Shown: in pieces, positions 26,634 through 35,671 of the stretch
Position numbering within the stretch: position 1 is the stretch's first letter
How the letters are laid out: every line of letters begins with the position of its first letter
Sequence record: PZ166176.1
DNA from: a phage
Strand: one strand, 5' to 3'
DNA: 64,000 nt
Program-made: the position numbers and the translations under genes
The notes under the pieces: generated by a model
Databases searched by the model: none
Told to the model about the DNA's origin: nothing
The model's input: the letters and a program-made list of their open reading frames with translations, nothing else

Positions 26634-27761
26634 TTATTCTGCTGGTTCCCAAGTGCCTGGGATCATTTCTCGAATACGAACACCAACAGGTTTTGTTGGA
26701 ATACCTTCATCTGAAAATTCTTCATACTCTATTTCAACAAACTGGTTAATCAAGGTAGAAGCATTCTCTGCTTTACGATAATTGATAGTCTCATGAGCAT
26801 CTTTACGCATTAAGAATTCGACTACTTTACCATTTTCCATCTCACCTGTCAACACTCCATCGCCATTTTTATCACTTTTTGAATTTGTTACTTTAACTTC
26901 AAGGGTATGGCGAGGCTTACGTTTAATAACGTCATAAGAACGTTTATCAAATTCGTAAACTCCGTGAGCATTACGATATACTACACCTTCAGCTTTCTCA
27001 AGTAAAGCTTTTTCATAGAAAGCATCAAACTGTTCTTGGTTTTCAATAAACTCTGTATGAACTACACAAATAAGCTCGTCAAGACCATAATCTTCAACTA
27101 CTGCCTTAAGAGCAGCAAGAACATCAACACGTTTTTCAAACGGTAGATCTGGAACTGGAATATCGTATACGTAATAGTTCAGCAAAGGTGTATTTGCATT
27201 ATGCTTCTTCCAGGCACTGTTAATTTGTTGTAGACTAAGGACACCTAACCCAGCAAACACTTCACCATCAAGAGGATGACCAACAACTTCACTAATAAAG
27301 TTTGGAATACCTTTCCAATGAGGTGGCAGGTTGTACACTTCCCCAGCTTTTGATAAACACTCCCCTTTCATGTTAATCATAGAACGCAACCCGTTCAGTT
27401 TGTACTGTGCATAACCAGGGAACACAACCCTTTCAGGATAATCTTTATAATCCTGGCATTTCATTGGTGTGGAAGGAACATGGTTTTCAGCTTCTTCTTT
27501 TGTTTTATAATAGCCATTCTTTAACTGTTTTGTCCATTTGGCAAAAGCTTCAAGTTCAGCTTGTTCTTCCGGTGTTGTTTCATTGGAACGACCAATGTTT
27601 TTTGCTTCTGCTGTATAAGATTTTTCTGTGATTTTTCCACCTACTCTTCCATGAGCTACAGTAACAACTGCACCATCTGTATACACTGTCCACTGTTTAA
27701 GTTTTCCTTTTGAATCTTTACCATACAGCGTTTGATTTGTTTGTTGCATTAGTCCTCCCAT
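26634..27761 (-). CDS. ATP-dependent polynucleotide ligase (DNA ligase-like)
   Basis: Motif I KLNGLR (KxDGxR-like with Asn), motif IV EGVVYR, motif V DVIKRK; size similar to T7-type ligases. Confidence 0.55.
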   Translation of the reverse strand: MGGLMQQTNQTLYGKDSKGKLKQWTVYTDGAVVTVAHGRVGGKITEKSYTAEAKNIGRSNETTPEEQAELEAFAKWTKQLKNGYYKTKEEAENHVPSTPMKCQDYKDYPERVVFPGYAQYKLNGLRSMINMKGECLSKAGEVYNLPPHWKGIPNFISEVVGHPLDGEVFAGLGVLSLQQINSAWKKHNANTPLLNYYVYDIPVPDLPFEKRVDVLAALKAVVEDYGLDELICVVHTEFIENQEQFDAFYEKALLEKAEGVVYRNAHGVYEFDKRSYDVIKRKPRHTLEVKVTNSKSDKNGDGVLTGEMENGKVVEFLMRKDAHETINYRKAENASTLINQFVEIEYEEFSDEGIPTKPVGVRIREMIPGTWEPAE

Positions 27762-28500: not shown

Positions 28501-28905
28501 TTATTGAAGTTTAAGTGAACCACGAAGACGTTTCTCTTGCTGATCACGGATATATTGTGGAACCTCGTGAATTGAATCATTACCGTGCCTATTTTCAACA
28601 ACTAAAGAGATAACTTGATAACCAAACTCTTCAGCAAGAGCTAAATAAGGTTTAAGTTCTTTCTCTGTGGTTGAAGTATTAGAAACAATAATCTTGTTAA
28701 GATTAGATGCCATAGCATCACGAACAATACCCTGACACCATGCGTGTGCTTTACCTACATTTTCTGGCTTCCAATCGTAAACACCACTCTCTGTGTAATG
28801 ATATTGATCTGCCTCACAGATAGGCCAATAACCTTCAGAAATAATTTCTGCTACTGTAGATTTACCAGCACCTGAAACGCCACGTAAAATGATAAGTTGT
28901 TTCAT
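28501..28905 (-). CDS. P-loop polynucleotide 5'-kinase (T4 Pnk kinase-domain-like)
   Basis: Walker A GVSGAGKST; overall pattern parallels the T4 Pnk kinase domain (P-loop, then IIVSNTS.. block). Confidence 0.55.
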   Translation of the reverse strand: MKQLIILRGVSGAGKSTVAEIISEGYWPICEADQYHYTESGVYDWKPENVGKAHAWCQGIVRDAMASNLNKIIVSNTSTTEKELKPYLALAEEFGYQVISLVVENRHGNDSIHEVPQYIRDQQEKRLRGSLKLQ

Positions 28906-29838
28906 TTATCCTCCAAAAAAGTTTTCGATTTTTTCACGTCGTTCTTGCTGATTTAAAGCAGCCCATTGAATCTTCGTAAAATTATTTTGAATCCATTCTA
29001 ACAAAGCGTAATATTCTTCGTCAACCATTTGTTTGGCATTTTTTGGATTATCCCAAATCAGATCCCACTTTTTATCTCCACCGCGCATAAGAAACTTCTT
29101 AGTAAGATAGTGTGGTGATTTAATTTTTAAAAGTAAGTTGAACGGATAGTTTGTTTCACGAACTACAAACCCTTCGTGTTTACAATGTTTAGACATTTCA
29201 ACAACATCTGAAAACTTAACCATTGGATGAACTTCAGGACGCTTAAATTTGGTGACAGAAGCAATTCCATCAAGAGCACCTTCAGGTAACATAAAACTTG
29301 TCCCATCAGGATTTTGAATTCTGGCACCAATTAAGTATGCACCTGGTTCTTCTTCGACAATATGCGGATCAGAAGGATCACAGATTTCAAAAAGGAAAGT
29401 TGCTTTTGCACTCTCTGTCCATTTGATGAAATGTTCTATGTCATCACACTCTGAAACAATATGATTCTTTGCAATACTTGCAAAATCTGATTCAAGGCTT
29501 CCTGTTGTCGATACAATAAGTTGACCTTTATATACACCTACAGAGGCCATAAAACCATTTATTTTACGAACCACATCTACAAGTTCATCCGCTGGTAGAT
29601 CTGTGCCATTCTCAAAACGATTAAAAATCTTAGTGAAAGGCCAAATAACAACATTGTCATCAGCATCAACAACGATTCCGCGACATTCTAGAAGACGAGA
29701 ATCAATGCTCCATAAGTTATCCCAGAAAACTTTGTTCTTATACTTAAGAACAGATAGACCAGAATACTCTCCTTCTTTATATGTTTTCTTATGAACTAAA
29801 CCTTTTTCAACCAAATCGTCGCAATTAAATTTAGCCAC
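28906..29838 (-). CDS. RNA ligase-like nucleotidyltransferase
   Basis: Motif I KINGFMAS (KxNG as in Rnl1/tRNA-ligase type), motif IV EGFVVRE, motif V LLLKIK; abuts the kinase and phosphoesterase genes. Confidence 0.5.
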   Translation of the reverse strand: MAKFNCDDLVEKGLVHKKTYKEGEYSGLSVLKYKNKVFWDNLWSIDSRLLECRGIVVDADDNVVIWPFTKIFNRFENGTDLPADELVDVVRKINGFMASVGVYKGQLIVSTTGSLESDFASIAKNHIVSECDDIEHFIKWTESAKATFLFEICDPSDPHIVEEEPGAYLIGARIQNPDGTSFMLPEGALDGIASVTKFKRPEVHPMVKFSDVVEMSKHCKHEGFVVRETNYPFNLLLKIKSPHYLTKKFLMRGGDKKWDLIWDNPKNAKQMVDEEYYALLEWIQNNFTKIQWAALNQQERREKIENFFGG

Positions 29839-29839
29839 A

Positions 29840-30391
29840 TTATTCTCCTTTGATTATTTTGTGATGGTCTACAGTCACGATATCTCGTTTACTCATCATA
29901 GAAATTATCTCATCAAAATGCAAGATTTTTCCGTGTGCATCCCAACCCACATCTAACATTTTACCATAAGCTTCATCAGGGAAAGATCCGTGGGAATGCC
30001 CGTGTAGCATGATTGATCCACGACCTTGTTTATTCCAGGAGGCCATAGGGTAATGGCTTAAGACGAAGAACAGCTTCTGATATTTCACTTCGTCATAATA
30101 CACCACTTCTCCATACTCTGCAAGCACTTCTCGGTGTTTGCTGTAGTCATGGTTCCCAACACAGTAGGTGATATCTCCTTGAAGACGGGAAGCAATTTTA
30201 CGGGTATCTTCTTCAGTTCCGAAACAGAAGTCGCCCAAATGCCACATCTTAACACCAGGAGTAGTAGCACATTTGTTCCATGCTTCGATCAAGGCTTCTG
30301 TCATGTGGTCCATATCTTCCCACGGACGATATTCAGGAGCAAACTCTCGAATACGTTTATGCATAAAATGCAAATCGCTTGTAATAAACAT
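29840..30391 (-). CDS. calcineurin-like metallophosphoesterase (RNA-end-healing phosphatase candidate)
   Basis: DLHF, GDFCFG, GNHD, HGHSH metal-binding motifs. Confidence 0.6.
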   Translation of the reverse strand: MFITSDLHFMHKRIREFAPEYRPWEDMDHMTEALIEAWNKCATTPGVKMWHLGDFCFGTEEDTRKIASRLQGDITYCVGNHDYSKHREVLAEYGEVVYYDEVKYQKLFFVLSHYPMASWNKQGRGSIMLHGHSHGSFPDEAYGKMLDVGWDAHGKILHFDEIISMMSKRDIVTVDHHKIIKGE

Positions 30392-34797: not shown

Positions 34798-34807
34798 CGT
34801 TCATCAA

Positions 34808-35001
34808 GTGTGGTAACAGGGTCGTTGACTTTTGTTAAGAGGGGCTTGCACTGCGGTAGTGTTAGAGACTACTTCTTCAGAGGTTAGCTACCAAAGAGGA
34901 AAAGGAATAGTCTCGGCTCAAGAACTTTTACGCTGAAAGTTGGGCTTGGTCTTAGAGAATGTAGCGGTTCTCTACAATCGTCAGCGTCTCTGTTACCACA
35001 T
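34808..35001 (+). ncRNA. structured RNA of about 190 nt preceding the first tRNA
   Basis: 5' GTGGTAACAG (34810..34819) pairs perfectly with 3' CTGTTACCAC (34990..34999); no ORF; sits between promoter and tRNA. Confidence 0.35.
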
Positions 35002-35005
35002 TTAT

Positions 35006-35080
35006 GGCCCTGTAGCTCAATGGGAGAGCTGTCGGCTCATAACCGATAGGTAGCTGGATCGAAACCAGCCAGGGCCACCA
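35006..35080 (+). tRNA. tRNA with CAT anticodon (resembles tRNA-Ile2 / elongator Met)
   Basis: Hand-folded cloverleaf: acceptor GGCCCTG/CAGGGCC, anticodon loop CTCATAA, T-loop ATCGAAA, encoded CCA. Confidence 0.7.
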
Positions 35081-35082
35081 AC

Positions 35083-35157
35083 GTCTTTATGGTGTAATGG
35101 ATAGCACAGGAGTCTTCTAAACTCTTAGTCAAGGTTCGATTCCTTGTAAAGACACCA
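35083..35157 (+). tRNA. tRNA-Arg (TCT)
   Basis: Acceptor GTCTTTA/TAAAGAC, anticodon loop CTTCTAA, T-arm CAAGG-TTCGATT-CCTTG, CCA. Confidence 0.7.
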
Positions 35158-35158
35158 G

Positions 35159-35342
35159 AACATTTTAACATGAATTAGCTCAAGTGATTTGAACCCACTA
35201 CTGATCATGGTGGCAGAGAATGAGGCAAGTATGTCAGACATTATAAACAAAGGCCACGGTTATATTAGAAGACATAAATGCTCGAAGAGCACCGTTCGTT
35301 GAGAACGGGGGTTGGTGGAGTCACCATTCATGGTAAAATGTT
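35159..35342 (+). ncRNA. structured RNA of about 185 nt following tRNA-Arg
   Basis: 5' AACATTTTAACATGAAT pairs with 3' ATTCATGGTAAAATGTT (one mismatch); no ORF. Confidence 0.35.
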
Positions 35343-35353
35343 TTAAAAAACTA

Positions 35354-35384
35354 TTGACAACTAACATTATTTTATGTTAGATTA
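35354..35384 (+). promoter_or_regulatory. sigma70-like promoter (ctaTTGACAa ... TGtTAGATT)
   Basis: TTGACA and extended -10-like element upstream of tRNA-Ser. Confidence 0.45.
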
Positions 35385-35391
35385 TAAGTAT

Positions 35392-35482
35392 GGAAGGGCA
35401 AATCGACGTGGCGACGAAAACGGTCTTGAAAACCGCCGAGCTTGAAAGAGCCTTGGGAGTTCGACTCTCCCTCCTTCCGCCA
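35392..35482 (+). tRNA. tRNA-Ser (TGA), long variable arm
   Basis: Acceptor GGAAGGG/TCCTTCC, anticodon loop CTTGAAA, long variable arm, T-arm GGGAG-TTCGACT-CTCCC, G73-CCA; D-arm atypical. Confidence 0.55.
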
Positions 35483-35486
35483 GATT

Positions 35487-35572
35487 GGTAGATTGGTGAA
35501 ATGGTAGCCACGACAGTTTGCTAAACTGTAGTCGGAAACGGCGTGTAGGTTCGAGTCCTACATCTACCGCCA
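35487..35572 (+). tRNA. tRNA-Ser (GCT), long variable arm
   Basis: Acceptor GGTAGAT/ATCTACC, anticodon stem ACAGT/ACTGT loop TTGCTAA, variable arm AGTCGGAAACGGCGT, G73-CCA. Confidence 0.7.
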
Positions 35573-35578
35573 AATTAA

Positions 35579-35664
35579 GATGAGTTGGCTGAATGGTTTA
35601 AGCGGCGGACTGTTAATCCGTGTTCGAAAGAACGATATAGGTTCAAATCCTATACTCATCGCCA
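35579..35664 (+). tRNA. class II (long variable arm) tRNA with GTT (Asn) anticodon; identity ambiguous
   Basis: Acceptor GATGAGT/ACTCATC (7 bp), anticodon stem GCGGA/TCCGT loop CTGTTAA, variable arm GTTCGAAAGAACGAT with GTTC/GAAC stem, T-arm ATAGG-TTCAAAT-CCTAT, G73-CCA. Confidence 0.55.
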
Positions 35665-35671
35665 GAATTAT

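Follow-up and report, generated by a model that had tools for sequence, protein, structure and literature searches.

A conserved structured RNA resembling a remodelled tRNA in the tRNA clusters of enterobacterial phages

Stable RNAs other than transfer RNAs (tRNAs) have been known from phage tRNA clusters since RNAC and RNAD of phage T4 in the 1970s. RNAC and RNAD (species 1 and 2) are stable RNAs of 139 and 119 nucleotides (nt), and their function is unknown (PMC3014915, PMC9697503). The element described here lies at positions 35159-35342 of a phage DNA stretch of 64,000 nt (sequence record PZ166176.1; the whole stretch is referred to as the window). It is a conserved structured RNA of the + strand and, judged from its sequence, a remodelled tRNA cloverleaf with a Pro-like 3' part and a large insertion. 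T4 RNAC and RNAD are the closest to it in kind. Like the element, they lie within a phage tRNA cluster, on the same strand as the tRNAs and directly after tRNA-Arg(UCU). T4 rnaD starts 2 nt past T4 tRNA-Arg, the same spacing as for the element, and T4 rnaC is weakly tRNA-like, as is the element, with a remnant of acceptor and T arm. However, rnaC keeps the canonical T loop GGUUCGAAUCC and rnaD ends in CCA, whereas the element has a truncated T loop, no CCA, a closing helix of 17 base pairs (bp) and a 100-nt insertion in the D loop. For homology to rnaC and rnaD, the covariance model of the element was run on the T4 region with filters off and gave only noise.

Two further groups of RNAs were compared. 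Y RNAs of the YrlA type are modular, combine a long end-to-end helix with a tRNA-mimicking domain and occur in some phages; their tRNA module was proposed to protect the RNA or to recruit partners (PMC4201824). Terminal helix and tRNA-like module are shared with the element. YrlA RNAs have intact D and T arms with tRNA tertiary contacts, a Ro60/Rsr gene as neighbour and Ro60/Rsr binding, whereas the element has a 4-nt T loop and a D loop replaced by 100 nt. The YrlA model (RF02553) gave weak matches on real tRNAs elsewhere and none on the element, and no TROVE (Ro60/Rsr) gene was found among the annotated neighbours, the whole genome not having been scanned. E. coli is not known to have Rsr. 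ROOL and GOLLD are phage and prophage RNAs, often located beside tRNA islands, which self-assemble into cages via kissing loops and A-minor contacts (PMC12286853). RNAs of less than 200 nt (manA, EGFOA) can form oligomers and cages as well (bioRxiv 10.64898/2026.07.01.735769). The element has the tRNA-island setting in common with ROOL and GOLLD, and its two self-complementary loops suggest that it may assemble. ROOL and GOLLD are 500-800 nt long, lack a tRNA-derived body and are unrelated in sequence (no Rfam match), whereas the element has 184 nt.

The element is bounded by two 17-nt arms, AACATTTTAACATGAAT (35159-35175) and ATTCATGGTAAAATGTT (35326-35342), which are 94% complementary, 150 nt apart and interrupted by a single A.G mismatch (35168/35333). 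This is exactly where the original prediction had placed the arms of a 17-bp helix with one mismatch. The closed segment of 184 nt on the + strand starts 2 nt (1 intervening base) past the CCA of tRNA-Arg(UCU). Inverted repeats of such size are not rare in the window (61 pairs of at least 14 nt), and when the sequence is folded alone, its energy is only modestly out of the ordinary (z = -3.69). The element was judged to be more than a chance structure because it is conserved, with compensatory changes, in relatives that are about 70% identical.

For structure and covariation analysis, 17 distinct sequences were aligned with MAFFT, which yielded 80 invariant columns. Salmonella phage 19, whose record is marked UNVERIFIED and contains many indels, was left out of the alignments. 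Standard pairs filled 93.1% of the cells of the consensus structure, compared with 36-47% when partners were slid by 1-3 columns. Pairs changed on both sides numbered 22 out of 52, versus 5 in the slid control, and the observed covariation score was reached by none of 500 shuffles, also for the tRNA-like structure variant. By helix (labels as in Table 1, where the counts for P4 are given), both-side changes affected 6 pairs of P1, 5/7 of P3 and 4/5 of P5. G.U cells exceeded A.C cells (77 versus 14), and the pairing is therefore assigned to the + strand transcript. A minus-strand RNA would fold too, but was rejected on the G.U/A.C asymmetry and the gene orientation. The discrete structured RNA of about 185 nt within a tRNA operon, as originally proposed, was thus borne out by conservation and covariation in the 17 sequences, and the check for conservation and covariance across related phages was positive (about 100 records, compensatory changes).

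All nine pairs of lower P1 form in 17/17 sequences. Three of them are changed on both sides (A-U/C-G etc.), and the UUUU/AAAA part is invariant. The A.G mismatch separates lower from upper P1. In Seunavirus, the two lowest pairs of upper P1 are replaced by a 2 x 2 internal loop, and pair 15-174 is changed from A-U to C-G. GCUC at 35178-35181 pairs with GAGC at 35287-35290 in 17/17 sequences. In the junction behind P3, AUGA could form 4 bp with UCAU of the P3 loop; nothing varies there. Several alternative structures were tried and rejected. The helix UUAUUU/GAAUGA, a local GCUC-GAA-GAGC hairpin and a helix between the P4 loop and the 3' strand of P3 either formed in one clade only or were contradicted by the covariation of P4a. 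A kink-turn reading of CGAAGA with UGA clashes in register with covarying P4a. C/D box RNA families matched with only 12-21 bits (E 2-8), compared with thresholds of 37-55 bits. Within the window, antisense matches of 12-13 nt were few, and their number was near that predicted by chance (a rough estimate gives about 1.3 12-mers).

The alignment also bears on coding capacity. Open reading frames (ORFs) of 20-42 amino acids are present in the element, and coding sequences (CDSs) are annotated over it in WPEC1, Kp05F01, KE22, NINP13076 and PsgM04F. A small protein, as these GenBank 'hypothetical protein' entries have it, was given next to no credence: the open frame differs among relatives and is shifted by 1-nt indels even between close ones, and substitutions track base-pairing, not codons. 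As no frame is conserved, the annotated CDSs are regarded as spurious. The earlier statement that the region holds no ORF is correct for conserved frames, but not for the short ones just mentioned.

About 100 phage records carry the element, each with a single copy, and BLAST found no others among 50,697. The segment 34700-36200 of the window is 99% identical to phAPEC8-like E. coli phages (Phapecoctavirus, Stephanstirmvirinae). Copies of the Phapecoctavirus group are at least 97% identical, those of the phiWec/PsgM04F group about 82% and that of Klebsiella phage 05F01 71%. In Seunavirus, which belongs to another subfamily (PVP-SE1, GAP31, SSE121, 4MG and others), identity is about 70%. The carriers include lytic phages of E. 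coli, Salmonella, Cronobacter and Klebsiella, and the element always lies inside the tRNA cluster on the tRNA strand. Pattern scans of IMG/VR, JGI metagenomes and GTDB (one genome per bacterial species) returned only near-identical phage copies and chance hits that were rejected by the model. A match to a 22-base pattern in a prophage was discarded because the sequence was unrelated. As a check for host mimicry, 5,426 E. coli genomes were searched, and nothing similar to the element was found. With Rfam 15 (gathering thresholds and E<=10; window and four homologues), no family was assigned to the element, and only nearby tRNAs and sub-threshold noise were reported. No homologue was found in the syntenic gap between tRNA-Thr and tRNA-Leu of Mydovirus, Henunavirus and Vequintavirus (KB57, FV3, pEa_SNUABM_55) using the covariance model with filters off, and the literature searched contained no description of the element. 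The family, whose architecture is unusual, is previously undescribed and restricted to about 100 enterobacterial phages.

Descent from a tRNA was assessed in several ways. No tRNA was called on the unmodified segment 35159-35342, either by ARAGORN or with Rfam RF00005 to E<=10. On distant Vequintavirinae phages the covariance model gave only weak hits, all of which fell on real tRNA-Pro and tRNA-Ile genes. In one of them, model positions 127-168 were aligned to tRNA-Pro(UGG), with GUAGAGCGCCUGGUUUGGGACCAGGAGGUUGAGUGUUCGAGUCACU in the tRNA against CGUAGAGCGCCGUUCGCGGAGAACGGAGGUCGGUG, a three-position gap and GAGUCACC in the element; in another, the whole model was aligned to a tRNA-Ile. The 3' part of the element was compared with 119 distinct phage tRNAs and matched tRNA-Pro(UGG) best in local alignment. 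The match score was 41 for the Seunavirus version (shuffles, 24.9 +/- 2.5) and 33 for the window version (shuffles, 25.2 +/- 2.7). D stem, anticodon stem, variable loop, T stem and acceptor of the tRNA-Pro(UGG) of the same phage group can be aligned to the element, and its acceptor, D, anticodon and T stems stand in cloverleaf order. This tRNA lacks the 100-nt D-loop insertion and the extended acceptor helix of the element; in the element, moreover, the T loop is GAGU, position 33 is a G, the 'anticodon' is variable and CCA is missing. The P6 loop has 4 nt instead of 7, with UUC missing, and aligns to GAGUG-UUCGAGU-CACU of tRNA-Pro. The 'anticodon' of P5 reads UUG, UGG, CGG or CUG, within a C-G-N-N-G-A-G loop that has G at position 33.

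For in silico reconstruction, the approximately 100 nt between GCUCA... and ...CGAAGAGC were deleted and TTC was restored in the T loop. The edited element was called as a tRNA by ARAGORN at default thresholds in 4/4 clades. The type was Pro for phAPEC8 and 05F01 (both tgg) and for PVP-SE1 (cgg), and Gln(ttg) for the window. The D stem used in these spliced constructs was GCUC/GAGC. Controls in which the repaired T arm was kept and the remainder shuffled gave 2/2000 calls. Deletion without repair of the T loop gave no ARAGORN call in any of the four clades. A tRNA-Pro gene with an intron, from which the 100-nt insert would be spliced out, could be suspected from the cloverleaf restored on removal of the insert. 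It was considered highly improbable: the cloverleaf is called only after the T loop is repaired too, G33, the absent CCA and the paired 3' trailer would persist, the base of the acceptor stem is mismatched in Seunavirus, no group I intron or other Rfam family matched, and a normal tRNA-Pro(UGG) is already present in the same cluster.

The insertion itself contains a second tRNA-like part. P3 resembles the anticodon arm of tRNA-Ile(GAU). A stretch of 22 nt spanning the hairpin is identical at 19/22 positions to the window's own tRNA-Ile(GAU) (36499-36520), and the loops, CUGAUCA in P3 and CUGAUAA in the tRNA, differ by a single A-to-C change.

Four alterations relative to a tRNA are kept in every clade: the 9-10-bp leader/trailer extension without CCA, the D-loop insertion of about 100 nt, the GAGU T loop and G in place of U33. 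With no CCA, a paired 3' trailer, a T loop without UUC, G33 and an 'anticodon' that varies by clade, the element cannot act as a tRNA, and it is predicted from these features that it can be neither charged nor used in decoding. The original prediction had listed the region as free of tRNA. This agrees with the detectors, which call none, but misses the tRNA origin of the element, remodelled by a large insertion. As an evolutionary relic, the element would be a dead tRNA gene, broken by the insertion and passed on without a function, with its tRNA-like parts kept similar by gene conversion from live tRNAs. Degenerate tRNAs do occur in phage tRNA clusters, for example at 35392-35478 and 35665-35754, and the 19/22 identity of P3 with the resident tRNA-Ile could reflect conversion. 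However, identity of the element across the two virus subfamilies (63-71%) is in the range of working tRNAs of the same clusters (65-88%; unrelated spacers, 46-52%), and compensatory changes are found in P1 and in P4, which is not a tRNA arm. The defects are also invariant (GAGU T loop, G33), which argues against simple decay, as decay would differ by lineage. A relic was therefore regarded as very unlikely.

Table 1. Parts of the element and its immediate neighbours in the window.
Feature	Position	Strand	Remarks
tRNA-Arg(UCU)	35083..35157	+	upstream neighbour; CCA ends at 35157
P1 lower, 5' strand AACAUUUUA	35159..35167	+	pairs with 35334-35342; leader/trailer extension under the acceptor-like stem
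P1 upper, 5' strand CAUGAAU	35169..35175	+	7 bp with 35326-35332; acceptor-stem equivalent
UA + GCUC	35176..35181	+	tRNA positions 8-9 (35176-35177) and D-stem 5' strand (35178-35181); invariant
Insertion of about 100 nt at D-loop position	35182..35286	+	holds P3, invariant junction and P4; no tRNA equivalent
P3 hairpin	35195..35213	+	6-bp stem, invariant 7-nt loop CUGAUCA (35201-35207)
Junction CAGAGAAUGA	35214..35223	+	largely invariant, unpaired in consensus; GAAUGAG invariant
P4 irregular hairpin arm, 59 nt	35224..35282	+	same architecture when folded in all four clades
P4 basal 4 bp	35224-35227/35279-35282	+	3/4 pairs changed on both sides
P4 inner stem	35242-35248/35258-35264	+	4/7 pairs changed on both sides
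P4 terminal loop AAAGGCCAC	35249-35257	+	same loop in Phapecoctavirus and Seunavirus
CGAA	35283-35286	+	corresponds to D-loop end
GAGC + A	35287..35291	+	D-stem 3' strand and position-26 equivalent; aligns to GGUAGAGC / GUAGAGC of tRNA-Ile, tRNA-Pro
P5	35292..35308	+	anticodon-arm equivalent: 5-bp CCGUU/AACGG and 7-nt loop CGUUGAG, or 6 bp and 5-nt loop
GGGUU (AGGUC in Seunavirus)	35309..35313	+	variable-loop equivalent; aligns to AGGUU/UGGUC of real tRNAs
P6 GGUG-GAGU-CACC	35314..35325	+	T-arm equivalent; invariant in 17/17 sequences
P1 3' strands	35326..35342	+	upper AUUCAUG 35326-35332; lower UAAAAUGUU 35334-35342; no CCA
Promoter-like site of next tRNA unit	35354..35383	+	sigma-70-like TTGACA-18-TAGATT

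In the explanation favoured here, with moderate confidence, the element encodes a stable non-coding RNA of tRNA descent that would act in trans through its insertion domain, preferably via loop-loop contacts. The element would be co-transcribed with the tRNAs and released by host tRNA-processing enzymes, with RNase P cutting at the tRNA that follows and 3' ends being trimmed at the tRNA that precedes. Given the CCA of tRNA-Arg 2 nt upstream, its 5' end would come from tRNA 3' processing. In the relatives, the gap between the upstream tRNA or tRNA-like gene and the element is 1-3 nt, and in Seunavirus and Klebsiella phage 05F01 tRNA-Leu(UAA) starts 3-4 nt past the element, where Phapecoctavirus has a promoter. 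These junctions of 1-4 nt imply, without proving it, release by the tRNA-processing machinery with the ends sealed in P1. The paired ends and the tRNA-like body may then shield the RNA from exonucleases. Engineered 'tRNA scaffolds' rely on the same stabilising logic.

The same junctions would suit a cis-acting processing or spacer element, in which the long A/U-rich closing helix and its internal loop serve as RNase III/RNase E entry site or as folding insulator, to ensure correct excision of the neighbouring tRNAs, and the excised piece has no role. The position between tRNA genes is constant, and the lower helix UUUU/AAAA is invariant in sequence as well as pairing, as expected of a nuclease site. 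T4 species 1 RNA was reportedly cut by RNase III in vitro. P1 alone would be sufficient for this purpose, yet the interior has about 80 invariant positions, some of them in unpaired loops and junctions, and compensatory changes maintain four internal helices. Moreover, most tRNA junctions of the same clusters have no such element, and the Phapecoctavirus copy ends a transcription unit with no tRNA next to it, the -35 hexamer of the following promoter-like site being 11 bases beyond its 3' end. A purely cis-acting role was considered unlikely.

For the favoured explanation, activity in trans would most likely reside in the insertion domain. The invariant P3 loop contains the 6-nt palindrome UGAUCA. 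The P4 loop differs between clades, being GUGUACAA in phiWec181 and GAUUGCGCAUAA in 05F01, and its core is self-complementary in each of them: GGCC in Phapecoctavirus and Seunavirus, UGUACA in phiWec181 and UGCGCA in Kp05F01. MAFFT aligned GGCC with GUAC, two substitutions that preserve self-complementarity. The chance of loop palindromes this long was calculated post hoc: about 1.5e-3 when only P4 is considered and about 5e-5 to 1e-4 when P3 is included. Predicted self-duplex energies were -5 to -10 kcal/mol. Self-complementary loops are the classical basis of kissing-loop dimers, and as preferred mechanism the two loops would kiss between copies to give dimers or larger assemblies. Alternatively or in addition, the tRNA-like body and the anticodon-like arms may occupy a host factor that recognises tRNA.

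Several observations weigh against this explanation. No expression, processing or stability data for any member were found in the literature searched. Only the Seunavirus version is significantly similar to tRNA-Pro (window, z about 2.9; 05F01, not significant). D stem, T arm and P3 loop show no variation and can for this reason not be tested by covariation, and the long-range D stem has a competing local alternative. The palindrome statistic was computed after the pattern had been noticed and covers just three independent P4 loop sequences. In the window clade, the P4 loop prefers to pair with the 3' strand of P3 in the thermodynamic ensemble, which lowers the predicted accessibility of both loops (unpaired probability: P3 loop, 0.21; P4 loop, 0.27); this fold is not conserved in Seunavirus and is contradicted by covariation. 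Finally, the total invariance of ACUGAUCAU points to a fixed partner; if self-pairing were all that counted, co-variation would be tolerated, as it is in the P4 loop.

In a more far-reaching form of the favoured explanation, a tRNA chassis would have been turned into a self-assembling RNA, the UGAUCA and P4 loops linking copies into dimers, rings or cages whose role in infection might be, for instance, to absorb a host nuclease or sensor directed at tRNA. UGAUCA would be an anticodon loop that a single base change has turned into a palindrome, and the co-varying palindromic P4 loop would provide a second contact. This proposal is speculative and its likelihood was rated low.

A fixed external partner is also what a tRNA decoy would have. 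A decoy directed against host defence (an enzyme that attacks or senses tRNA, such as an anticodon nuclease, or a retron, PARIS or HEPN effector) overlaps with the favoured explanation; here mimicry and not self-association would be active, the enzyme being titrated by a tRNA-like acceptor/T stack and two anticodon-like arms. It would be consistent with the tRNA-derived body, with the fully invariant P3 loop and with its likeness to the Ile(GAU) loop, one A-to-C change away. The phage context fits a conflict over tRNA as well, as ten tRNA genes are accompanied by a set of Rnl1-type ligase, kinase-like and phosphoesterase genes 5 kb from the tRNA cluster. On the other hand, the elbow of T loop and D loop, which is read by most tRNA-binding proteins, is destroyed, and we know of no defence system that targets tRNA-Ile(GAU) or tRNA-Pro. 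A decoy is accordingly a doubtful candidate for the main function.

The gene set was located at 28501-30391 on the - strand, where genes for a P-loop kinase-like protein (AAA_33), a T4 Rnl1-type RNA ligase (PF09511) and a metallophosphoesterase are adjacent. The trio is likely an RNA (tRNA) repair cassette, a candidate assignment by the precedent of the Pnkp/Rnl1 set of T4, which repairs tRNA cut by anticodon nucleases. An ATP-dependent DNA ligase is encoded at 26634-27761.

A second segment of similar size, at 34808-35001, had been noted as resembling the element. It comprises 194 nt between the first promoter-like site and tRNA-Met, has arms at 34806-34840 and 34969-35003 and a strongly stable fold (z = -5.71). 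The resemblance holds for size and, in outline, for the closing helix, but the covariance model found no second copy of the element in the window. The segment at 34808-35001 was detected only in Phapecoctavirus (71 records), whereas the element also occurs in Seunavirus and Klebsiella phage 05F01. The two are considered unrelated.

The tRNA cluster of the window comprises ten tRNA genes (35006-36710) and is split into units by three promoter-like sites (TTGACA-18-TAnnnT); genes and sites are all on the + strand. Around the element, the Seunavirus genomes differ from each other. Some of them carry approximately 490 bp extra between the element and tRNA-Leu(UAA). In SSE121, this segment holds an annotated HNH endonuclease gene (L007 516-1010), and in PVP-SE1 about 490 bp are unannotated (L005 1682-2171); in GAP31, 4MG, KE22 and FENT2 the distance is just 3-4 nt. 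The extra segment may be a homing insertion. Directly upstream of the element, Seunavirus has a tRNA-like gene of about 108 nt with a canonical T arm and a CCA end (L006 1386-1494; L069 164-270). It was not called by ARAGORN and scored 31 bits on the tRNA-Sec model in L069.

Downstream of the element in the window, a tRNA-like gene at 35392-35478 was not called by ARAGORN and reached 37.4 bits with the tRNA-Sec model, which is below threshold. The homologous position is annotated as tRNA-Ser(TGA) in ASO2A and PsgM04F. At 35572-35579, phAPEC8, Mt1B1_P17 and others have approximately 220 bp with tRNA-Tyr(GTA) between tRNA-Ser(GCT) and tRNA-Asn. This segment is missing in the window, and tRNA-Ser and tRNA-Asn are therefore only 6 nt apart. 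The 90-nt spacer between tRNA-Asn and tRNA-Thr (35665-35754) looks by eye like a degenerate tRNA, with ends GGACUUG...CGAGUCC and a T-arm-like GCAGGUAUCGAAUCCUGC, and was called by no detector. Directly after tRNA-Thr, a hairpin at 35828-35913 has 23-nt arms (87% complementary) and a 40-nt loop. It is followed, ahead of the next promoter-like site, by about 180 nt of unassigned sequence to 36095, and the region 35828-36095 may encode yet another RNA of the cluster, the third that is not a tRNA. Where the cluster ends, a weak RyhB-like match at 36797-36851 (29.4 bits, E = 0.008; threshold, 55 bits) overlaps a terminator-like hairpin at 36826-36844 that is followed by a T run; the hairpin is probably the terminator of the tRNA cluster.

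The record of Escherichia phage WPEC1 (L067, PV659873) is not collinear with the window. Its tRNA cluster is interrupted by structural genes, those for major head protein, portal and terminase, and some of the cluster recurs 16 kb downstream. This arrangement may be due to misassembly or rearrangement.

For annotation, the finding has the practical consequence that several GenBank records carry a spurious protein over the element. Among the stable non-tRNA RNAs of phage tRNA clusters, the element is a compact example (184 nt) whose origin is clear and whose well-defined features can be mutated: two loops, a truncated T loop and a closing helix. Its carrier phages are easy to grow and to engineer, and several are used in phage therapy and biocontrol. 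As a compact, defined RNA in tractable phages, it offers a system in which to ask what such RNAs do. It also illustrates the rebuilding of a tRNA gene into an RNA of another kind. If self-assembly were true, the element would be a 184-nt, tRNA-derived counterpart of ROOL and GOLLD in well-studied phages of E. coli and Salmonella, where it would be genetically testable.

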